Assembly: GCA_903844645.1 (NCBI GenBank)
Contig: CAIMUP010000013.1
Location: forward strand, 1,428-65,427
Reading direction: 5' to 3'
Origin: an uncultured Bacteroidota bacterium
GTDB taxonomy: Bacteria; Bacteroidota; Bacteroidia; AKYH767-A; JABDAW01
Length of the DNA stretch: 64,000 bases
In this document: positions 4,043-62,499 of the stretch, one piece after another
Layout: each line of letters begins with the position of its first letter
Numbering within the stretch: the first letter of the stretch is position 1
Program-made: the position numbers and the translations under genes
The notes under the pieces: generated by a model
Database searches by the model: none
Told to the model about the DNA's origin: nothing
What the model saw: the letters and a program-made list of their open reading frames with translations, nothing else

Positions 4043-4345
4043 AGGCATTAGGAAAAAAAGCAGGGCATCAAATTACCCAATTTCATACCTTAAGTTTTTG
4101 CTCAAGGCATCACATTACCCGATGTGTGGGGTTGAGCAAAAACTTAATGCTTCACATCATCCAATTTGGAGGTATGGGAAAAAAAGTAATGCCCCACATT
4201 ACCCGATTTTGGGGTATGGCAAAAAACCTAATGCCCCACATTACCCAATGTGATGGTATGGCAAAAAACCTAATGCCCCACCTTACCCAATGCGGGGGTA
4301 TGAGCAAAAAAGTAGTGCCTCACATTACCTAATGTGGGGGTGTGA
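4043..4345. repeat. Array B: 42-bp tandem repeat, about 7 copies, each with an internal hairpin
   Basis: The unit is gccccacattacccaatgtgatggtatggcaaaaaacctaat. The anchor gc(a/c/t)(t/c)cac falls at 4065, 4107, 4149, 4191, 4233, 4275 and 4317, a spacing of exactly 42. Each unit contains the dyad cacatt-accc-aatgtg. Confidence 0.95.
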
Positions 4346-8652: not shown

Positions 8653-8718
8653 AAAAATAAAATGAAAAACTATTGCTTTCGGTTTAGGAAAAATGCAGGG
8701 CGGTTTAGCTTTTATATT

Positions 8719-8926
8719 GACCTGTTTAAAGTTTATGTCGGTCTGTTTAAAGTTTGTATCGGTCTGTTTAAAGTTTAAACAGGTCTGTTTAAAGTTTGTA
8801 TCGGTCTGTTTAAAGTTTAAACAGGTCTGTTTAAAGTTTAAACAGGTCTGTTTAAAGTTTGTATCGGTCTGTTTAAAGTTTAAACAGACCTGTTTAAAAT
8901 TTGTACAGACCTGTTTAAAAACTATA
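8719..8926. repeat. Array C: 21-bp tandem repeat, about 10 copies, two alternating variants
   Basis: The units are ggtctgtttaaagtttgtatc and ggtctgtttaaagtttaaaca, starting at 8719, 8740 ... 8908. Junctions of the b-type variant create the 9-bp inverted repeat tttaaacag-gt-ctgtttaaa. Confidence 0.95.
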
Positions 8927-10923: not shown

Positions 10924-11009
10924 AGTCTTTATTAAATATAAATTATTATTAAGGGCGGCAAAAATAGGAAAAGGATTTGAGAATGGAATTCGGGCAGTGC
11001 AAATGGTTA

Positions 11010-12275: not shown

Positions 12276-13761
12276 AATGTTTTTTGTTATGGATTAAATA
12301 ATTCAATTGGTACAAAGAGAATTTAGAATTACTCCAAAGCAAAAGAGGCTTATCGGGATAAATCATTAGGAATTTTTTTGTAGAATCATCGGGGAGGTCG
12401 GTGCAGGTCAAGAGGTATTGAACATTGTACTTCAAATTATTATATGCAATGCTTTCTAATGATTGATTGGCACATAAAATTGTTCGGCGATCAGTATAGA
12501 GATTCAATGCCCTTGGCTTGTTGAATGCAATTTTTGCATCCATCGGAGTATTCCTTTTTATATATTCAAATGCTTCGACAGCTTCTGCTTCCTGCGGTCC
12601 TGGCAAGGTTTCGTTTTGATGTCGGATGATGTTGATGGCACTGAATGAATAAGGAATCAGGATGAATAAGCCGAGAGAAAGGATGATGATATTCTTCTTG
12701 AGTGGGGAATTAATCTTCACCATCATTAAACCAATTACAGTATAATAAATAAGGATGGGAAAGACAGGAAATAAGAATCGCATTCCTGAATTCATATCGG
12801 GATAAAGCAGGAGCGCAAAGAGATAGATGATGACGAAGAAGTCAATGAAATCAACCTTCCTGAAACATTTCTTCAGGAAGCCGATGGTGGTAAATAGCAC
12901 CACCAGCCATTGTGTAAGGATGGCGAGTAAAGGGAATACACCTCCGCCAGACATGAAGAAATATCTGAACGAATGGAGGTAATAACTTGCCTTCATTCGC
13001 AAGATAGGAAAGGATATTGAAGCGAAGTATTCACTGCCGATACCTATTTTAAACAATGCCTTAAAGTCTATCAATACAAACACTATCGTGATGGTGATGA
13101 CTAATGCTCGCTTCATTATTTCAAGTTTTATAGCATTGTTTCTTCTGTTTTTCCATAAGGATATGATGTCTTCAAGAATCAAAGCGGCAAGCAGCACAAT
13201 GCCGATGGTTCGGATGGAAATAAGGATGCCGAGAAGCAATCCGGTAAGGAGATATTTCAATGTCTTGTTTCCTTTTGTCTTTGAATAAACAAGGATCACA
13301 AGGATCAGGAATAAGGTGAATGGAATATCAGACATGATCTCCTCTTTGAAGTTCAAAGTGAAGGGATTATAGGCGAAGATCAGGACTAACAAGATGGAGA
13401 CAAGATCGCTGAAATGCTTGCGGTAGAAGGAAAAGAGTGCTATGCAGAGCAGGAATAGGATAAATGTAACAGTGATGACAAATCCTTTTATACTATTCCC
13501 AACATACAGACAAGTCATTGCCAGGATGAGTGGGAAACCCACAGGACGAGCGGAGATATGCACTCCCGGACTTCTTATATCATCAATGAATCCCGTCGCT
13601 GATTGCGGAATTCCTTTGGTGATGTTTATCGCTTGATGAATGTATTGCGCGAAGTCGTCGCCCCAGTCGTGGCTGTTGCGGATATTGATGAAGAACAAGG
13701 GAATACAGAGGGCATACACAAGTGCAGATGCCATGAACTTCCTCTTAAACAACTTATCCAT
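12247..13761 (-). CDS. polytopic membrane glycosyltransferase-like protein (GT-C / family 39-like, tentative)
   Basis: It has many TM segments, an N-terminal [13 protein letters not shown] loop and a soluble C-terminal domain. The start is uncertain (ORF runs to 13794), and it overlaps the upstream gene end and the downstream MFS start. Confidence 0.6.
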
Positions 13762-15334
13762 GATAATCTTGCTCGGCATTGACATTCCAGACATTTTCTT
13801 TCGTCGTGATGTCCGCGATAATATTGTCCACGGCGGTCATGGCGCAGAGCATGGAATGGTCTTGGTTGTTGTATTTGTGCATTCCATTGCGACCGATGAG
13901 GAAAAGATTTTGAAAGGCATCGGTGAAAGTTTTAATCTCCTCAAAACGATCGTAAGTACCAAAGTATGCGGGGTAACTTTTCTTCTCTTTGATGATGATT
14001 GCATCGAGAACATCGGAAGCATCAATGAAACCAAGCTGTTGCAATTCGGCGGTAGCAAAAGCTCTCATATCTTCATCCGATTTATTCCACAACGCATCGC
14101 CTTCATCGCAGAAATAATCCAAGCCCAGCCATACTTTCGAGGTGTCATGCAGCATATAGGGACTGAAATTATTATACACCACTATCCGCCCCAGCATTAC
14201 GTTTGGTTCCTGGACATAGATCCAATTATCAGCGATTAAACTCTTGCCATCGCTGTTCTTATAATTCAACTTATTCAACAATAATCCGACGGATATAAAA
14301 TCGCGATAGATAAGACCGCCGGCTACCTCGCTGACATTAGCAGGTACATCCTGCATTGCCGCAATAAGTTGCTTGACGGGCATAGTGGAGAAGAAGTAAT
14401 CGCCATCATAAATTATTTCTTCGGCATTATCAGAAGTGCCGTCGTCAGTAGCTTTGATGGATGTTATGTTATTCCCCGAAGCAATTATCGAAGTAACATT
14501 TTTATTAAAATGTATCGCTCCGCCTTTCGCCAAAATGATACTGGCTACTTCGTCCCACATCTGCCCGGTGCCGAGTTTCGGATAGAGGAAATGCTCGGTG
14601 ATATGTTCATCGGATGTTGAATTATTAATCCCAATAATTTTCTTTAAAGCATGAATAAAAACTTTGGTAACCGATAAGCCCTTGATGCGTTGCGCGCCCC
14701 ATTCCGGCTTGATTTGGTCGCAGGGCACGCCCCAAACCTTCTCGGTATAGTCTTTAAAGAATGTTACATATAGCTCTTTGCCAAAGCGATTAATCAAGAA
14801 ATCTTGTAGCGAGGACTCTTTGCTGATCGGGAATAATTTCACGAGTAGATAACTCCAGAGAATCTTTGAAATCCGCACCAGTCCCAGGTTTCTGATCATT
14901 TCCATACCGAGCGAGACGGGATAAGAGAAGAAACTATGTAGATAAAATATCCGCGTAAAGCGATCTTTAATCAACAGCACTTTATCTTCCGTCAGCGGAT
15001 CGGGACCGGTGGCGGAGAGCGGTATCTTGCGCTTATTATTTTGATAAGAAATCTCAATATCATTTTGGTTAATGCCCTCAATTCCCTGCAACGGCAGGAT
15101 ATTCAGCCACCAGTTCATCACCCGGTCAGATTTTGAGAAGAAGCGATGCGGACCGATGTCTATGCGGTTGCCTTTATAATTAATGGTCTTCGCAAGTCCG
15201 CCCACAACGCTACTTTTTTCTAATATTATCGGCATGATGTCGGTACGCATGAGGAGTTCGTAGGCGGCGGTCAGTCCGGCAGGACCGGCACCGATGATGA
15301 TAGCAGTTTTTTTCTTTCCCTTAATGTCTTCCAT
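13754..15334 (-). CDS. FAD/NAD(P)-dependent oxidoreductase (amine-oxidase / UDP-galactopyranose-mutase-like fold)
   Basis: It has an N-terminal Rossmann motif [20 protein letters not shown], at 526 aa. Confidence 0.8.
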
Positions 15335-15546
15335 GATGGTGGCAAAGAAAGGAAATTCGTGGGGCAGGGATGGAAAACTTTTTTTTCAGAGAATTGTATT
15401 TCTCCACTATTTTTAGTATCATTGCAACCTCGAACAAAAAATGAAGCCTCAAAACACATATAATAATCTCGCAAATCTCTCCAATAATTTTGGAGGTGGG
15501 GCTTGCATATTAAATAGAGTTTGTGTAAACTCGAAGCCGCCTCAAT

Positions 15547-15577
<31 letters not shown>

Positions 15578-15658
15578 CAAATTTTTTGAAATAACCAAAT
15601 CGGAGAACACTTTTTCTGGTTCGGTTCAAAAAATTTCGTTTTCCTTTTCTAATCTTTC

Positions 15659-15951
15659 ATTAAAGTTTCCAAAAATTTCCGCGATTTTTCAGGAATCTTG
15701 GTCAAGTCGCCAGAGTTTTGACCAAAGTTTCATACGCCCCAGCCAAAGTGTGCCGAACTTCAGCCAAAGTTTTGGAAACTTTGACCAAAGTCCAGCGACT
15801 TTGACCAAAGTAGATGAAGATTCGGTTGAGGTTTCTGAAACTTTGACCAAAGTGGGCTTCACCGTGGTCAAAGTTTCTGCTTTCTCGCCCAAAGTTTCCG
15901 GAAATTCCTCCAAAGTTTCCCAAAAATCCCCCAAAGTTTCTGAAACTTCGG
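15659..15951. repeat. Array D: degenerate 21-bp-phased array with conserved core CCAAAGT(TT)
   Basis: Core starts fall at 15722, 15743, 15764, 15785, 15805, 15847, 15868, 15889, 15910 and 15931, giving spacings of 21,21,21,20,42,21,21,21,21. The sequence between cores is variable. Confidence 0.85.
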
Positions 15952-16076
15952 GACCTGTAGGAAGAATATTGGCTGTAAATCAGTCCATTTCTTTCCTGAC
16001 TTCGATTTTCGAGGTCCTTTTACAAAATCCCGCTAACGGAATCCAAATAGAAATTTAATAACTTAATAAATAAACT

Positions 16077-16778
16077 ATGATCATAAATTACAGAGGTCCT
16101 TACAAAGCGGCTACGCTTGACGGGCAAATTGACCAAATCCGAATCATCGGAGTAAAAATGGGAACGTACAAATTAACGTTGGACCTTCTCCAACCGAACA
16201 TTGACCGGGTGAACAACACCTACCTGATGCTTAAATATGTCGATGGCTGCGAAAACAGCGTGGACGGCTACAAAAAAAATCTGAACGATTACAAGCATGA
16301 ATTGTTGAGCGGCGACAAGGCGCATCAGATGAATGCGTTCCCCGTGATGGAGGCGTTTGCCACCGCCCCTGCCGCTACCAAAGGCGGTATTTGGCATTTT
16401 ATCGAAAGCCAACGGAGCATCATGATGGAGCATGATAATTGGACGGACGGCATCGGCGAAGACATGCACCTTTTAGGTCCGATGCGCCAGTTGGATTCTA
16501 ACCTTTATGTGCCCGAAGTGAGGCTGAAAGTGCGAGCCGGAGTTATCGAAGCGATTACCGATTCGGCGATTATCACGAATCATAAACTCTATGTCGGACC
16601 GCAAGGCATTGACCCGATTCCGTTTATCACCGATTTTAAAGGTGCTAAATACGAATATCACCGCACCATCGCGCCCCCGACGACTTCCGAAAAGCTGAAT
16701 GTAATGATTCGCGGCATGTTCGATAATGAAATTATAGGGCACGATTCGGCAATCGTACAGATAGCTTATAAAGGATAA
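16077..16778 (+). CDS. orphan protein P2 (array-fronted, unknown function)
   Basis: This 233-aa ORF has no signal peptide and is preceded by degenerate array D. The start could instead be the internal Met (MGTYKL). Confidence 0.6.
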   Translation: MIINYRGPYKAATLDGQIDQIRIIGVKMGTYKLTLDLLQPNIDRVNNTYLMLKYVDGCENSVDGYKKNLNDYKHELLSGDKAHQMNAFPVMEAFATAPAATKGGIWHFIESQRSIMMEHDNWTDGIGEDMHLLGPMRQLDSNLYVPEVRLKVRAGVIEAITDSAIITNHKLYVGPQGIDPIPFITDFKGAKYEYHRTIAPPTTSEKLNVMIRGMFDNEIIGHDSAIVQIAYKG

Positions 16779-23571: not shown

Positions 23572-23846
23572 TTAGCATTAATACTCTTGTTTTCGGCAGG
23601 ATTTTTAACCTGAATTACATTAAAACAATGCTTGAAAAGGGTGTCGAAAGCAGACGTAAAACTTTCATTAATGAATCAAACAAGCACTCGACAGACAATT
23701 TTATGGTTTTAATTACAGTGAAACCACTCCTTATATTCAGGGCGCATTTTAGGATGGCGAAAATTTGCAGGCAACAGTTTTATAATTTTCAGAAATTAGG
23801 GTTTAATAGAATTCCTTGGAATATTTTTAGTTACGATAAATTTGTG

Positions 23847-23854
23847 TAGATTTG
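23847..23854 (+). promoter_or_regulatory. candidate -7 box (TAnnTTTG) for gyrA
   Basis: The sequence tagatttg lies 47 nt upstream of the ATG at 23901. Confidence 0.4.
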
Positions 23855-28646: not shown

Positions 28647-28850
28647 TTCACCCTTTTGAGGGATTGTTTTAGGAACTAATACCTTGTAATTTTGCATCCT
28701 TAATTACAAACAATGGATCATTACAATCACATAGCGAATACAACGGATAGCAATCACGACAGAGGCAATGCTTCTGGAAGGTTTTTCAATGGTGGCGGTA
28801 GTGATATGGATACAAATTGTAGTTTAAACATATGCCAAAAAAACTCAAAC

Positions 28851-29102
28851 ATATCTTTTAGTAACAATAAGATACCTTTTAGTAACAATAAGATACCTTT
28901 TAGTAACAATAAGATACCTTTTAGTAACAATAAGATACCTTTTAGTAACATAAAGATATGTTTTAGTAACAAAAAGATACCTTTTAGTAACAAAAAGATA
29001 CCTTTTAGTAACAAAAAGATACCTTTTAGTAACAAAAAGATATGTTTTAGTAACAAAAAGATACCTTTTAGTAACAATAAGATATGTTTTAGTTTTTCTC
29101 AC
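28851..29102. repeat. Array E: 21-bp tandem repeat, about 12 copies
   Basis: The unit is ataccttttagtaacaataag, with variants atatg... and ...aaaaag. Starts fall at 28851, 28872 ... 29082. Confidence 0.95.
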
Positions 29103-30044: not shown

Positions 30045-30272
30045 ATGAGAAAAATAACCTTAGAGTTACCTGATTCTGTTGAATTAAATGACCAAGAAGT
30101 GGCATTATTAGTAGCCGCAAGTTTCTATGAACATGGAAAACTTTCATTAGGACAAGCCGCCGAACTGGTAGGTCTATCCAAACGGGCTTTTATGGAAGTA
30201 TTGGGCAAGTATGGAGTATCTATATTTAATTATCCTGCCTCCGACCTGTCGAGAGATGTAAAGAATGCATAA
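30045..30272 (+). CDS. UPF0175-family antitoxin-like protein
   Basis: This 75-aa protein has the motif GKLSLGQAAELVGLSKRAFMEVLGKYGV, and its stop overlaps the start of the next gene by 8 nt. Confidence 0.75.
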   Translation: MRKITLELPDSVELNDQEVALLVAASFYEHGKLSLGQAAELVGLSKRAFMEVLGKYGVSIFNYPASDLSRDVKNA

Positions 30273-30720
30273 AACAATAGTCTCGGACACGAGTTGTTTT
30301 ATCATCTTTACTAATATTGGGGAATTAGATTTGCTATTTCAGACTTATGGGCAGATAATTACTACCAAAGAAGTCGCTTTAGAATACGGCGAAGAGCTTC
30401 CTGATTGGGTAATTATCAAAGAAGCTAATGATAAAGACTTTCAACATAACCTGGAGAAGAAAATTGATAAAGGAGAAGCCAGTGCCATTGCCTTAGCAAT
30501 AGAAATTATGGATTGTACCATCATTCTTGATGATTATAAAGCCCGGCAAGTGGCAGAACAATTGGGTCTTGATATCACAGGAACGATAGGTGTTATCATT
30601 AAAGCAAAATTAAATGGAATAATACCTTCTATTATACCCTATCTGGATAAAATTAGTAAGACAGATTTCAGAATAACGGATGAACTTAAAGAACAAGCCC
30701 TCACAGAAGCTGGAGAATGA
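30265..30720 (+). CDS. DUF3368 / PIN-like nucleic-acid-binding toxin-like protein
   Basis: This 151-aa protein has an N-terminal IVSDTSCFI acidic/PIN-like start and a GEASAIALA motif. Pairing with UPF0175 is a classic arrangement. Confidence 0.75.
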   Translation: MHKTIVSDTSCFIIFTNIGELDLLFQTYGQIITTKEVALEYGEELPDWVIIKEANDKDFQHNLEKKIDKGEASAIALAIEIMDCTIILDDYKARQVAEQLGLDITGTIGVIIKAKLNGIIPSIIPYLDKISKTDFRITDELKEQALTEAGE

Positions 30721-30768
30721 TAGTACAAAAGAATAAGTATCTTTGCGCCCTCATAAAATGAACTAACT

Positions 30769-34682: not shown

Positions 34683-34864
34683 GTACACGTGTACAATTCG
34701 TCCTGCAACTGTGTCGGAGGCAATGTTCGGTGTACTTTGCCCCAACACAGTTGTGTTTGCCAATTCTACATGTGTACTATTGGCAAACACAGTTACTTTT
34801 GCAGAAGTACACGTGTAGAATTGGCAAACACAACTGTGTTTGCCAAATGTACACGTGTACATTC
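34683..34864. repeat. Array F: roughly 42-bp tandem repeat, about 4.3 copies, built from two alternating palindromes
   Basis: It alternates GTACACGTGTAC (12-bp palindrome at 34683, 34807, 34849; degenerate at 34725, 34766) with AATTGGCAAACACA-ACTGTGTTTGCCAAAT (30-bp palindrome). The dyad centres are 21 bp apart. Confidence 0.9.
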
Positions 34865-35028: not shown

Positions 35029-35292
35029 ATGGCAAGATTTATCCTTATATTATTGATTATTTACGTCCTCTTCCGATTGTTTCGGCGGAGTATCTTTGTA
35101 TATACCGTCAATTCGTTTCAGAATAAGATGGAAGAACAAATGCGGAAACAACAACAACAACAAAAGAAAGAATATCAACAACAACAACGCCAAACAAATG
35201 GTAAAACCAAAGTCGAATTCATCCCTCCCGAGAAAAATAAACGCCCCCACGATACCGATGGTGAATATGTGGATTACGAAGAAATAAAATAA
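35029..35292 (+). CDS. small membrane-anchored protein (DUF4834-like, tentative)
   Basis: It has an N-terminal TM (FILILLIIYVLFRLF), a poly-Q/K middle and a C-terminal GEYVDYEEI. Confidence 0.5.
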   Translation: MARFILILLIIYVLFRLFRRSIFVYTVNSFQNKMEEQMRKQQQQQKKEYQQQQRQTNGKTKVEFIPPEKNKRPHDTDGEYVDYEEIK

Positions 35293-37950: not shown

Positions 37951-38202
37951 ATGAATATCTTTTGCTTCGGGATGAATATCCTTTGCTTCGGGATGAATAT
38001 CCTTTGCTTCGGGATGAATATCCTTTGCTTCGGGGTGAATATCTTTTGCTTCGGGGTGAATATCTTTTGCTTCGGGATGAATATCCTTTGCTTCGGGATG
38101 AATATCCTTTGCTTCGGGATGAATATCTTTTGCTTCGGGATGAATATCTTTTGCATCGGGATGAATATCTTTTCATCCGGCTTCAATACATTTTCATCCC
38201 GG
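37951..38202. repeat. Array G: 21-bp tandem repeat, 12 copies
   Basis: The unit is atgaatatcctttgcttcggg. Starts fall at 37951, 37972 ... 38182. It lies between the terminator at 37870-37908 and the ppiC-type gene at 38399. Confidence 0.95.
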
Positions 38203-38358
38203 GTTAATGTCTTACATGAACTTTTCCCCGTTATAAAACCCGATTTGGAGGGGTAAAAAGGGAGGTTTTTGGAAATTCTCCACCCTCCATTTCCCACTTT
38301 TAAGTCTCCATTCCCCATTTTCCATTCCCCATTCTTTTTCCATTGTCAGGAAATTTTA

Positions 38359-38366
38359 TAGTTTTG
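38359..38366 (+). promoter_or_regulatory. candidate -7 box (TAnnTTTG) for the ppiC-surA-moxR gene block
   Basis: The sequence tagttttg lies 33 nt upstream of the ATG at 38399 and downstream of array G. Confidence 0.4.
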
Positions 38367-40405: not shown

Positions 40406-41251
40406 TTGTTCAGAATCATTTTTTGCTGCTTAATCATTTCTCTGATGACCTCCTGTTCCTATTTCAAACATAACGACGGCAATGCCGCTGTGGCAAAGGC
40501 TTTCGATGCTACTTTGAATCGGGCTGATGTCGCGGGATTGGTGCCGAAGGGCAGCTCCAAACAGGATAGTGTGATGATAGTGAAGAGCTATATTGACTCT
40601 TGGATTCGGAAGGAATTGGTATTAAGAAAAGCCGAGAAAAACCTCTCCGATGAGGCGAAGGATGTAGAGAAACAATTGGCAGATTATAAGAATTCTTTGA
40701 TAATTTATGCTTATGAAAAGGAACTGGTTCGCCAGCAATTAGATACCACGGTGAAGGATGCGGAGATCGAAAAATATTACAACGAGCACCAGGGAAATTT
40801 TGAATTAAAGGATAATATTATCAAGGTTTTGTACCTTAAATTACCGAAGACTGCGCCGAGACTTTATACCGTGAGGCAATGGTATAAATCCTCCAAGGCG
40901 AATGACCGGAAGTCGCTTGAGGACTATGCGCATCAGTATGCCGTGAATTATTATTTCGATGATAATTCGTGGTTGCAATTCGATGATTTATTAAAAGAAA
41001 TTCCGATTAAAACCTACGATAAAGAGCAGTTCTTGAAGAACAACCGGTATGTCGAAATCGAGGATTCGATGAATCTGTATTTCGTCAATATCAACGGCTT
41101 CAAAACTAAGGAAAGTACCTCGCCGCTCTCGTTTGAAAAGGATAATATCAAGAGCATTATTATCAATAAAAGGAAGCTGAAATTGATTGAGGATATGGAG
41201 AAAAAGGTGTACGACGAGGCGGTGAAGGGCAGCGATTTCAAGATTTATTAA
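40406..41251 (+). CDS. lipoprotein, chaperone-like (SurA N-domain-like, tentative)
   Basis: It has a putative TTG start and a lipobox (LMTSCS), and it sits between two parvulin genes. Confidence 0.5.
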   Translation: MFRIIFCCLIISLMTSCSYFKHNDGNAAVAKAFDATLNRADVAGLVPKGSSKQDSVMIVKSYIDSWIRKELVLRKAEKNLSDEAKDVEKQLADYKNSLIIYAYEKELVRQQLDTTVKDAEIEKYYNEHQGNFELKDNIIKVLYLKLPKTAPRLYTVRQWYKSSKANDRKSLEDYAHQYAVNYYFDDNSWLQFDDLLKEIPIKTYDKEQFLKNNRYVEIEDSMNLYFVNINGFKTKESTSPLSFEKDNIKSIIINKRKLKLIEDMEKKVYDEAVKGSDFKIY

Positions 41252-41277
41252 TAAAATGGACAAAAAGATGCTTTTTC

Positions 41278-41445
41278 TATTAAATACGACTACAATGATG
41301 CCGTCATCTCCTACAATGATAGCGTCATCTACTACAATTATGCCGTCATCTACTACAATTATGCCGTCATCTACTACAATGATGGCGTCATCTACTACAA
41401 TTATGCCGTCATCTACTACAATGATGGCAACTTCGACTACACATT
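41278..41445. repeat. Array H: 21-bp tandem repeat, 8 copies
   Basis: The unit is tgccgtcatctactacaatta. Starts fall at 41278, 41299 ... 41425. The array ends 15 bp before the surA-like ATG (41460). Confidence 0.95.
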
Positions 41446-41459
41446 TATTACATTAATTC

Positions 41460-43868: not shown

Positions 43869-44162
43869 CGGCTGTTGATTGGAGAAAGTCGGCTGTTGAT
43901 TGGGGAAAGTTGACTGTTGATTGGGGAAAGTCGGCTGTTGATTGGGGAAAGTCGGCTGTTGATTGGGGAAAGTTGACTGTTGATTGGGGAAAGTCGGCTG
44001 TTGATTGGGGAAAGTCGGCTGTTGATTGGGGAAACATGGACGTAGATTGGGGAAACATGGACGTAGATTGCGGAAACATGGACGTAGATTGGGGAAACAT
44101 GGAGGTAGATTGTAGAAACATGGAGGTAGATTGCAGAAACATGGAGGTAGATGGGTTTTACA
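43869..44162. repeat. Array I: 21-bp tandem repeat, 14 copies in two subfamilies
   Basis: It has 8 units of (c/t)g(g/a)ctgttgattggggaaagt, arranged cgg,cgg,tga in a 63-bp higher order. Six units of tgga(c/g)gtagattgnngaaaca follow. Starts fall at 43869 ... 44142. Confidence 0.95.
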
Positions 44163-49926: not shown

Positions 49927-50162
49927 CCGACCGGATTTGGGAAAGATGCGGTCGGATATTTCCTTTCTCCGGTCGGATATTTCTTTTTTCCGGTCGGATA
50001 TTTCTTTTTTCCGGTCGGATATTTCTTTTTTCCGGTCGGATATTTCTTTTTTCCGGTCGGATATTTCCTTTTTCCGGTCGGAGATTTCTTTTTTCCGGTC
50101 GGAGATTTCCTGTTTCCGGTCGGAGATTTCCTTTTTCCGGTCGGATATTTCCCGTTACCGAC
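49927..50162. repeat. Array J: 21-bp tandem repeat, about 11 copies
   Basis: The unit is ccggtcggatatttctttttt. The anchor ggtcgga falls at 49950, 49971, 49992 ... 50139. It lies between dgkA and the alpha-oxoamine synthase gene. Confidence 0.95.
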
Positions 50163-50299
50163 CATTAATTTTTGGCTGATTAACGGAAGAAAATATATCT
50201 TTGACCCCTTACCAAAAAAATGAAGCCGCAAAAAGCGATTCCGAAGGACATAAAATGAATGAAACAAAACATAATAGTAAACTTAAAACAGACAGATAA

Positions 50300-51691
<1,392 letters not shown>

Positions 51692-53853: not shown

Positions 53854-54368
53854 GTCATTTTGAGCCAAAACGGTACCTATTTACTGAAATTCGGTAAGGT
53901 TTTCCCGATATTCTCTGCATAATCCTACGATATTACCTTGATATTTGATTATATATCGAAGGAAATCTCTCATAAATAATCCCAAAAAAGACTTATTTAC
54001 TAAGAATGGTCTATACTTTTATCCAGCGAAACGATGGTTTCATCGGGCTAAACCATAGTTTAAACAGATATTAGACCTCTTTCATTGTTGTCTTTTCAAT
54101 GATCGTATAACAATCTCGGAGGGACGGCATCTTTTTTTATTCGGTAGTAAACGATGATTTATAATAGAGGTCTATTCTTGGGAATAACTATCTAAATCGT
54201 GTGAAATGTGATCTTATACAGGCAGTTTCGGTAGTAAATAGGGGTAGTAATGATCTCGTCCAGAGGGTATTTAATAGTGTTTGGAAGGGTTCTTTAGGTA
54301 ATAATAATGAATGTGTACATACATTTTGTTCGGTGTATATGCCGCCGAGTTATTACAATATAAATTAT

Positions 54369-54558
54369 CCGTCATCATATATGAAAACGGACAATCGTAA
54401 TAGTTATTATTGTATTAACTATTGTAATTATTGCTTTAGCAATAGTAAATATGACCATAACGATACCTTGGGCGATATTTTCTATCGTTACTGCAATAAT
54501 AACATATGTAAAAGGTATCCTTAGGATACCAATTATACGTTTTCATATATGATGACGG
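54369..54558. repeat. perfect 21-nt inverted repeat pair flanking 148 bp
   Basis: The sequence ccgtcatcatatatgaaaacg (54369-54389) has its exact reverse complement cgttttcatatatgatgacgg at 54538-54558. Confidence 0.9.
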
Positions 54559-54579
54559 ACGAAAAGGATAGTAAAAGCT

Positions 54580-54748
54580 GTTATCACGATAGTTATTGTT
54601 GTTATCACAATGGTAAAAGCGGTTATCACAATAGTTATTGCTGTTATCACAATAGTTATTGTAGTTATCACAATAGTTATTGCAGCTATTACAATTGTAA
54701 AAGCAGTTATTATAATAGCTATAACAGTATTCACGATAGCGATGACAA
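54580..54748. repeat. Array L: 21-bp tandem repeat, 8 copies
   Basis: The unit is gttatcacaatagttattgct. Starts fall at 54580, 54601 ... 54727. Related, degenerate reverse-orientation copies lie at about 54390-54450. Confidence 0.85.
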
Positions 54749-54978
54749 AAACTGTAAGTACATTCATTAGTAATACCATATAAATAGCACAATAGATGAA
54801 GAAATTAAAGGTAAAACGGATGGTTTATATCAGGATTAATGATGTCCCTGACACCCGAATGGTGATTCTTTCCATGTTCCTGACAGGTTTTTTCACCTGA
54901 TAGGTTTTGAGAATTGGAATTCCTATCGTTTCATCAGGTTTTGGGATTACAATTTGGAGGGAAAGGCTTCCTTTTTTA

Positions 54979-58026: not shown

Positions 58027-58152
58027 GGCTGCGAATGATTTCGTCGTGACTGCGACTATTTTCATCATGACTGCGACCATTTCCGACTAGATTGCGACTA
58101 TTTTCATCGTGACTGCGACCATTTCCGACTAGATTGCGACCATTTTCATCGG
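58027..58152. repeat. Array M: 21-bp tandem repeat, 6 copies with a 42-bp higher order
   Basis: The units gactgcgaccatttccgacta and gattgcgactattttcatcgt alternate. Starts fall at 58027 (degenerate), 58048, 58069, 58090, 58111 and 58132. Confidence 0.9.
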
Positions 58153-61655: not shown

Positions 61656-61929
61656 GGCGTGTTTTTTAATTCTATGGCGGCGAAATTAAGAAAATTGTTG
61701 GCGTTCGATTATCCGTTCTCGATCATTCGCAATCTTTATCCAAAGATACGTTTTCTCTCATCAAAAAATACTCGGATTGGTACCAAGAAAAGCATCATGC
61801 AGATACCTTCTCTCGGTATTCATTCAGGGAATCGCGATCTGTTGGTTCAAAGACTCGTTTCTTATACACAATACTGCCTCTGTTGTATTCCATTCAGCCT
61901 CCTTTTAGCTGCTAATCGCGATTCTGAAG

Positions 61930-62242
61930 CCAAAAGTCGAGATATTGAAACAATGAATCGTACCCATTAACCACTTAATTGAAGTGAAAGACTATTTTAG
62001 TATAATGAATGACTCATTAAGTATAATGAAAGACTATTTTAGTATAATGAATGACTAAAACACTAATATGAAAGACTAATTACCAGACATGAAAGACCAC
62101 TTCATGTCTGGCAATTAGTCTTTCATATTAGTGAATTAGTCTTTTACCTTAATAAAGTAGTTAATCATTATACTAAAATAGTCTTTCACTTCAATTAAGT
62201 GGTTAATGGGTACGATTCATTGTTTCAAGGTCTCGACTTGGA
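61930..62242. repeat. Element N: roughly 313-bp nested imperfect palindrome built from the GAAAGAC motif on a 21/42-bp lattice
   Basis: The outer arms match over about 65 bp perfectly (61945-62009 vs 62165-62229), with imperfect extension to 61930 and 62242. The inner 33-bp stem (62061-62094 / 62101-62133) has one mismatch. GAAAGAC starts at 61986, 62028, 62070 and 62091, and GTCTTT(C/T) starts at 62118, 62139 and 62181. Confidence 0.9.
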
Positions 62243-62499
62243 ATGATAAAATGGAGGAATGGCATCCGATTATCGAGGTATTTAATAAGATAGAGGCGAT
62301 GAATAATACGATAATGACGATACCGAATCATCTGATCAAGATTCCCCAATAAATACCACCGAATACCGACCGATAGGAGGCGAAATGTGAAAACAGAACC
62401 GCTATTTTCGGTACCTTTCTCGGGAATAAAAGATAATAAGTCGCGATGAACATTCTTAGATATTCATCATCTTTATCAAGCCCGAAAAAAGGGAGTATC

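Follow-up and report, generated by a model that had tools for sequence, protein, structure and literature searches.

In an uncultured lineage of lake Bacteroidia, about a quarter of the intergenic DNA is given over to tandem arrays that share nothing but a period of 21 bp. We describe these arrays in a 64-kb stretch of the metagenomic contig CAIMUP010000013.1 (the window) and focus on one of them, array D, which occupies part of a 742-bp divergent spacer that separates an oxidase operon from an orphan gene. Array D is very probably a non-coding, degenerate tandem array of about 14 x 21 bp, in a lineage whose long spacers mostly carry arrays of period 21, 42 or 63. Within it a 7-bp half-site, CCAAAGT, is fixed and the rest of the unit is saturated with changes. 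Intergenic tandem repeats of bacteria are usually viewed as sporadic products of slippage with arbitrary periods; array D shows how such an array ages, and provides evidence of constraint at the nucleic-acid level in an otherwise dismissed class of repeats. The lineage-wide class of 21-bp arrays is the more striking result, and array D is its first hint of constraint.

A lineage-wide class of 21-bp arrays

Every tandem periodicity in the window was found at lag 21, 42 or 63. An array of one of these periods is carried by 13 of the 19 spacers of at least 150 bp, and the arrays make up 27% of the intergenic DNA. Besides array D, the window holds 12 further intergenic arrays, at 1859-2044, 4111-4341, 8711-8919, 28847-29093, 37951-38213, 41289-41426, 43869-44152, 49949-50152, 51545-51691, 54337-54798, 58029-58151 and 61985-62200. 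Their unit sequences are mutually unrelated, and they occupy tandem, divergent and convergent spacers. Two more 21-bp arrays, with 7.6 copies of TTAATGTCGAGGGGGGACACT and 10 copies of CCGATTCATAGGGAACGAAGT, are found at 2821-2979 and 6455-6664 of contig L225, about 1.3-5.1 kb to the left of the window start. Dyad symmetry was considered as a general property of the class and rejected, as it holds in about 5 of 19 units.

The array class is restricted to this lineage, and array D is its decayed member. The closest relatives with such arrays are L216 (GyrA 77% identical), L085 (oxidase 82%) and L087 (oxidase 73%). No such arrays were seen at five loci from relatives at 71-74% GyrA identity, nor at 80 unrelated control loci (1.38 Mb), where the periods are scattered from 7 to 29 with none at 21. 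Literature searches on 21-bp intergenic arrays in Bacteroidota gave nothing relevant. The sample names indicate stratified-lake metagenomes as the source, and near-identical contigs occur in several samples. The nearest GyrA in the databases is 77% identical and the named matches at about 70% belong to Bacteroidia; a scan of species-representative genome contigs with the flanking oxidase gave a best match of at most 56% identity, hence no close genome.

The near-identical sister arrays vary between assemblies, namely those at 28847, 37951, 49949 and 1859. Direct comparison gave differences of -42, -168 and +21 bp, and according to gene calls the spacer of array 1 is 63 and 84 bp longer in two further samples, all of these differences coming from short-read assemblies, which are unreliable for such arrays. 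MEGAHIT-style k141 contigs, BUCK21 scaffolds, Logan contigs and JGI contigs from several samples all carry or break at 21-bp arrays. Contigs often end or hold N gaps inside them, and the open frames called there change length accordingly (L212, L213-L215, L216, L222-L224). Array D and other diverged arrays are constant between assemblies. Annotation turns the arrays into hypothetical proteins, and short-read assemblies break at them, which distorts gene catalogues and genome contiguity in this group.

In two cases an array continues the frame of a neighbouring gene. Array 11 (51545-51691) starts right after the stop codon of an aminotransferase gene (50300..51544) in the same frame, with good codon usage and the repeat AGKDDNY, which is resembled by the C-terminus of the aminotransferase (...HAGDDDNL); the array either invaded the 3' end of the gene or was derived from it. 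Array 8 (41252-41459) runs on in the frame of gene 40406..41251 past two stops, with the repeat YYNDAVI and a high codon score, and this frame has no start codon of its own.

Array D and its conserved half-site

Array D (15660..15951, no strand assigned) comprises about 14 slots of a 21-bp unit, as delimited by the lattice print-out, the core positions, the column statistics and dyad symmetry. A sequence-only reading of this region had described a CCAAAGT core kept on a 21-bp lattice with a single 20-bp spacing that shifts the phase, and both features were confirmed. Nine exact copies of CCAAAGT lie on the plus strand within 15722-15937, four of them at exact 21-bp steps in a first phase (15722..15791; starts at 15722, 15743, 15764 and 15785) and five in a second (15805..15937; starts at 15805, 15847, 15889, 15910 and 15931). 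The phases are offset by the lone 20-bp unit of the array, CCAAAGTCCAGCGACTTTGA (15785..15804, no strand), in which a 1-bp deletion moves both the lattice and the reading frame, and which has identical letters in the assemblies L001 and L002. On the lattice of the second phase, slot 15868 reads TCAAAGT and slot 15826 contains a ruined core, TTGAGGT. Viewed as a head-to-tail tandem array, array D displays 10 cores with at most one mismatch on the lattice, the 11th slot (15826) being ruined. Weaker slots extend leftward, with TTAAAGT at 15660 and GTCAAGT at 15701, and a second 1-bp slip is located there.

Identity at lag 21 rises to 0.58 over 15810-15954. With default settings, Tandem Repeats Finder called only 15888-15940 (2.5 copies, 84%), and the detection of just these last units marks array D as truly degenerate. 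The array is identical in the window, L001 and L002, the three assemblies that span the spacer. An assembly artefact was therefore rejected: two other metagenome assemblies carry the identical array, and graph collapse cannot produce a degenerate one.

The sequence-only reading had also held that the core is conserved and the remainder variable, which the column statistics bear out. When 11 units are aligned, 72 of the 77 cells in the seven core columns agree with the consensus, as do 90 of the 154 cells (58%) in the 14 non-core columns; all five core mismatches are confined to two units, one of which has lost the core outright. To allow for the non-independence of units within a tandem array, we counted for each column the fewest substitution events required (at most three in any of them). 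The core columns need 4 in total and the remaining columns 33, and with shuffled column values the probability of seven contiguous columns with so few events is about 0.001. The difference in rate between core and spacer columns is genuine and withstands this test, which tolerates shared ancestry.

The 58% match of the non-core columns exceeds the 41% obtained in a within-unit shuffle null (p < 0.0002), so that whole-unit ancestry is still visible in array D. The inferred ancestral unit, GAAACTTTG-AC-CAAAGTTTC-T, is a near-perfect palindrome with 9-bp arms, and the consensus is self-complementary at 18 of 21 positions (p = 0.004). Since the non-core columns both beat the shuffle and rebuild a dyad-symmetric unit, the units descend from one palindromic 21-mer, whose right arm, to judge from the aligned units, appears to be frozen, while the left arm and the junctions appear to have drifted. 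In units 15868-15910 the core is intact though its pairing partners are broken (2-4 Watson-Crick pairs of 9), and the constraint is thus on the motif itself and not on the hairpin. With a palindromic ancestor recoverable and at least 13 sister arrays of the same period, array D is best regarded as an old slippage-type array that has decayed unevenly. The earlier proposal of a binding site as opposed to a slippage expansion was a false choice, array D being a slippage-type array that later came under constraint, and the interpretation as a whole is partly supported.

Other decayed arrays retain cores of their own. The spacer 54232-54800, between convergent genes, keeps the start ATA(G)T in most of its 27 21-bp slots; in the area 61656-62499 a TCGCGAT-type column block is retained in the flanks of a mirrored array (61934-62239); and at 4767-4955 of L085, the relative with the 82% oxidase, nine slots at exact 21-bp steps retain only (C/G)ATATGAC. 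These cores are mutually unrelated. A constant core with a variable cassette was tried as a description of all arrays and is nominally significant in arrays 3, 9, 11 and 14L, but the generalisation was dropped; the signal in arrays 3 and 9 derives from one or two inherited variant units and gives a rough p of about 0.1 each when these are taken as single events. The lattice shuffle test, which is inflated in coding DNA by codon periodicity, as seen in coding controls, was used descriptively only. Core-only conservation is robust in array D only.

The mirrored array lies upstream of ribBA and consists of a 21-bp array followed by its own mirror image (61934-62058 / 62115-62239; 125-nt arms, 86% complementary). 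Every fetched contig with ribBA stops no more than about 430 bp upstream of the gene, either within this structure or close to it. A second mirrored segment, at 54368-54452 / 54475-54559 (85-nt arms, 72% complementary), is located inside the ATA(G)T lattice of about 570 bp.

Candidate explanations for the frozen half-site

Array D probably originated, as did its sister arrays, by slipped-strand or unequal-exchange amplification of one 21-bp unit, in this case an almost perfectly palindromic one, and is by now too diverged to slip. After amplification the half-site CCAAAGT(TT) would have been held constant while the other 12-14 bp drifted almost to saturation, for which purifying selection on a short recognition element would be the simplest reading. 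As 21 bp equal two turns of the helix, the putative element would be shown about ten times on one helical face, with the single 20-bp step tolerated. The outcome would be a platform of many sites, in a control region between divergent genes, to which a putative DNA-binding protein could bind cooperatively. Both such a platform and purifying selection on the half-site are suggested tentatively, at a likelihood that we place somewhat under even, and the whole statement on array D with its binding-site mechanism is held with similar reserve, slightly short of an even chance. The evidence for selection consists of the within-array statistics of array D, no orthologous array having been recovered.

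Several observations weigh against this reading. No regulator gene (LytTR, Rep or other) was found in the window, where none of the 41 genes scanned against Pfam contains LytTR, and no binding protein was identified. Unlike ordinary operators, the ten sites take up 230 bp, and the nearest start codons are 126-420 bp away. The sequence-only reading had proposed a search for further CCAAAGT clusters, and the motif turned out not to be enriched elsewhere in the portion of the genome covered by the counts (about 72 kb, i.e. the window and a further 8 kb to its left in L225). The window has 20 copies on both strands vs. 8.4 +/- 2.5 in shuffles; 9 of these are in array D, the remaining 11 correspond to the background level, and the further 8 kb contain none. 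Nothing thus points to a regulon. Sister arrays are found in convergent spacers too, where promoter control is not expected. The different cores of the other decayed arrays argue against one dedicated factor, and point to a general way in which these arrays decay instead of a dedicated site.

Comparison with relatives adds to these points. The protein database contains relatives of the oxidase at 82, 78, 73 and 68% identity. For the first, the contig stops 158 bp upstream of the gene and the alignment is lost beyond about 60 bp; in the other three the upstream spacer is short and free of arrays. The element is therefore young and lineage-specific, and no orthologue of array D was recovered among the oxidase relatives reached. 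A metagenome scan for CCAAAGT-N14-CCAAAGT-N14-CCAAAGT gave at least 120 loci, and the matches listed are all unrelated, ordinary 21-bp or 7-bp tandem repeats that contain the motif, none accompanied by relatives of the window genes.

Array D can be set beside several known systems. In common with minisatellites (variable number tandem repeats), the class consists of intergenic head-to-tail arrays with copy numbers differing by unit multiples. It departs from them in having one period (21 bp or its multiples) despite unrelated sequences; array D itself also has core-only conservation, and fails to show the copy-number variation between strains that is typical of minisatellites, being constant in three assemblies. 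A genome rich in intergenic tandem repeats is known from Ehrlichia ruminantium. Repetitive extragenic palindromic (REP) sequences and bacterial interspersed mosaic elements (BIME) are, like array D, intergenic palindromic units capable of forming hairpins in DNA or RNA; REP sequences, however, are one family dispersed genome-wide, whereas the array D unit was found at this site only (in about 72 kb) and about a quarter of the arrays are palindromic. Clustered regularly interspaced short palindromic repeats (CRISPR) likewise alternate a constant with a variable segment at a fixed period. Their repeats and spacers are each a few tens of bp long. Array D has a 21-bp period with a constant part of 7-9 bp, its variable parts have diverged from one ancestor and were not acquired as spacers, and no cas genes or domains were found in the window.

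Iterons have a better conserved inner motif and looser flanks. Array D resembles the iterons of plasmids such as RK2, F, P1, R6K and pPS10 in its phased head-to-tail direct repeats and in a unit length within their range; iterons measure 17-22 bp, and their cooperative binding depends on helical phase (PMC4980987). Iteron sets comprise 3-7 copies beside a rep gene, DnaA boxes and an AT-rich unwinding element. Array D, in contrast, has about 11 cores, no recognisable Rep gene or DnaA box, a chromosomal housekeeping context and 14 sister arrays of other sequence. LytTR regulators bind 9-bp repeats with a 12-bp spacer, and in operators such as those of AgrA, ComE and SilA a 9-10-bp direct repeat with a free spacer of 11-12 bp gives a 21-bp register (PMC2766830). 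The 7-9-bp core and 12-14 variable bp of array D are similar in geometry only. LytTR operators each consist of a repeat pair directly preceding a promoter, array D has about 10 repeats over 230 bp, and its core is unrelated to any consensus known to us.

It is possible, if unlikely, that array D has no function and is an old selfish or neutral 21-bp minisatellite, whose core was kept by dynamics intrinsic to the array and not by selection for a reader. Short-tract conversion or slippage on the best microhomology are possible causes, as is a mutational cold spot next to a hypermutable half. Such an origin would suit a genome in which unrelated arrays fill 27% of the intergenic DNA in all spacer types including convergent ones, in which several decayed arrays retain differing cores and in which young arrays vary in copy number and break assemblies; the lack of the array at the same locus in relatives and of any use of CCAAAGT elsewhere also fits. 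Nevertheless, 4 vs. 33 minimum events are impossible from uniform mutation and shared ancestry, and we know of no slippage or conversion process that protects a fixed 7-bp segment while the remainder saturates. Slippage duplicates and deletes symmetrically, so that core-bearing units would not be favoured by it, and array D, identical in three assemblies, is without current slippage.

A bolder idea, which we consider distinctly unlikely, is that a process that measures length operates in the lineage and populates its intergenic DNA with fixed-21-bp arrays of arbitrary sequence, each ageing to a recognition core of about 7 bp, the arrays together forming a new class of phased elements. The source might be repeated staggered-cut and fill-in duplication by an integrase-like enzyme, or strong selection for phase-neutral repeats. 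The retained cores would be CCAAAGT in array D, ATATGAC in the relative and the ATAGT type in the sister array, and their reader could be a family of proteins whose register is fixed at 21 bp; alternatively, the arrays could function as transcripts. If there is a reader, be it a structured transcript or a protein bound to one face of the helix, the arrays would represent a new regulatory or architectural layer; should an intrinsic mutational process be responsible instead, it would be a repeat-generating mechanism of a new kind with a 21-bp ruler.

The half-site might also be frozen at the level of a structured RNA transcribed from the minus strand, where transitions in the G/U-rich arm ACUUUGG, complementary to the core, would break pairing and the C/A-rich partner arm would be free to change from C to U and from A to G through G.U pairs; we regard this as improbable. 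For 15690-15965, the folding energy of the RNA is -110.5 kcal/mol on the minus strand (z = -7.1) and -87.6 kcal/mol on the plus strand (z = -4.3). Folding was further compared with a simulation in which the consensus served as the ancestor, the mutations stayed at their positions and the replacing base was drawn at random with the observed transition fraction. The minus strand gave -102.4 vs. -79.6 +/- 6.2 in the null and the plus strand an equal -73.0 vs. -70.6 +/- 6.6 (strand difference p about 0.003). The real minus-strand energy is far better than that of the null, and the real substitutions hence preserve minus-strand folding. T>C and A>G dominate the changes in array D, the last unit forms a terminator-like hairpin on the minus strand (15929..15953; 11 pairs, then a T-rich run), and a minus-strand RNA would explain why the G/U-rich arm is the frozen one. 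On the other hand, counts of local hairpins give a modest G.U excess only (15 vs. 9 and 18 vs. 13), and units 15868-15910 keep the core while largely unpaired. The ancestral palindrome, itself uncertain, already favours the minus strand by 12 kcal/mol. The minus strand to the right of array D has no exact TAnnTTTG box, and a scan against Rfam 15 gave no match at the gathering thresholds and just sub-threshold eukaryotic families at E <= 1.

The Bacteroidota promoter consensus, established in Bacteroides and Flavobacterium promoter studies, has TAnnTTTG at -7 and TTTG at -33. Exact TAnnTTTG boxes are found 20-90 bp upstream of many starts in the window (e.g. 23837-23854, 38359-38366, 50196-50203, 30738-30745 and, on the minus strand, 10959-10966), which indicates that the box is in use in this genome, while its total in the window is at chance level (67 vs. 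65 expected). Six minus-strand units of array D read AAACTTTG, one base off this box with TTTG kept, and CAAAGTTT, which is AAACTTTG on the minus strand, occurs seven times in the window, of which six are in array D. The core might accordingly be read by RNA polymerase, with array D acting as a series of weak promoters, or as a sink for polymerase, directed towards the oxidase operon. This is highly improbable, as no unit has the T of TA and an exact minus-strand box is thus missing throughout, a step of 21 bp falls short of the -33/-7 spacing in this type of promoter, and array D lies 325-620 bp from the start codon of the oxidase.

A 205-codon open frame on the plus strand (15441..16058) crosses both an (AC)n tract and array D. 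It is annotated by gene callers and has 207 codons in L001 and L002, the 6-bp difference in the (AC)n tract keeping the frame. That it is a real gene for a repeat protein nevertheless has hardly any probability. The frame reads the core as D-Q-S before the 20-bp step and as (T/P/S)-K-V after it, as the sequence-only reading had noticed, and no repeated peptide runs in one frame throughout array D; the two-frame reading supports the inference drawn there that conservation acts on the nucleic acid and not on a peptide. With a codon-usage log-likelihood trained on 29 long window genes, the frame scores 0.049 per codon, below all 107 real-gene pieces of the same size (minimum 0.061, mean 0.261). 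The 205-aa product has no match in Pfam, NCBIfam or PHROG and no homologue among 1.84 billion representative proteins, and the exact 207-aa sequence, sought as a population variant, is absent from protein cluster tables. Over most of array D three of the six frames are open, in agreement with the at least three claimed earlier; the other two are on the minus strand (15689..15934 and 15702..15923), as expected when the repeat unit is free of stops in those frames. The frame is thus almost certainly not a gene and its translation very unlikely, given the frame change, the poor codon usage and the lack of homologues and families, and the earlier view of it as a compositional by-product is most likely correct.

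Just as little credence is given to array D as the iterons or the centromere of a replicon, integrated or former, with a Rep- or ParR-type reader such as the orphan protein: the unit length and phasing are iteron-like (PMC4980987) and the orphan gene, of Rep-like size, begins 126 bp from array D, but the spacer has neither parS nor a DnaA box within one mismatch (best match two mismatches), the neighbours carry no Rep, Par or mobile-element domains, the surroundings are a chromosomal housekeeping region (gyrA, ffh, efp, ribBA, SurA-like isomerases and type IX secretion cargo), the locus is not marked by a sustained reversal in cumulative GC skew, and 14 other arrays of the same period cannot all be origins.

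The spacer and its surroundings

Both genes that border the spacer are transcribed away from array D. The left one (13754..15334, minus strand) encodes an FAD/NAD-binding oxidoreductase of the amine-oxidase type and heads a row comprising this oxidase, a PMT_2 glycosyltransferase and an MFS transporter. The right one (16077..16778, plus strand) encodes the orphan protein of 233 aa, whose codon score of 0.287 is normal. It has one distant homologue and no match in Pfam, NCBIfam, PHROG or the PDB, and its AlphaFold model has a mean predicted local distance difference test (pLDDT) score of 35 and is unusable. The orphan was considered as a candidate binding protein for array D and set aside on these grounds, i.e. 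the lack of a family or PDB match, the single homologue and the poor model.

A scan of the spacer for sigma-70-type promoters gave nothing above chance. Its only exact TAnnTTTG is TAATTTTG (15485..15492, plus strand), which sits within the open frame and is directed through array D to gene 16077; one such match is expected by chance. The sole length polymorphism of the spacer is the microsatellite (AC)14 (15547..15574, no strand), which is (AC)17 in L001 and L002. Two Logan contigs terminate within this tract, which is unusual for Bacteroidota and a candidate for phase variation or Z-DNA formation.

Elsewhere in the window, a small gene pair of the UPF0175 / DUF3368 type, resembling a toxin-antitoxin system, is located amid housekeeping genes (30265-30720, with a 75-aa gene upstream; 1815..2490 in L212). 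The divergent spacer 5' of a YfhO-like gene contains a 41-bp repeat (34744-34861, 2.8 copies), one base under 42, and an (AAC)14 tract at 35147-35188.

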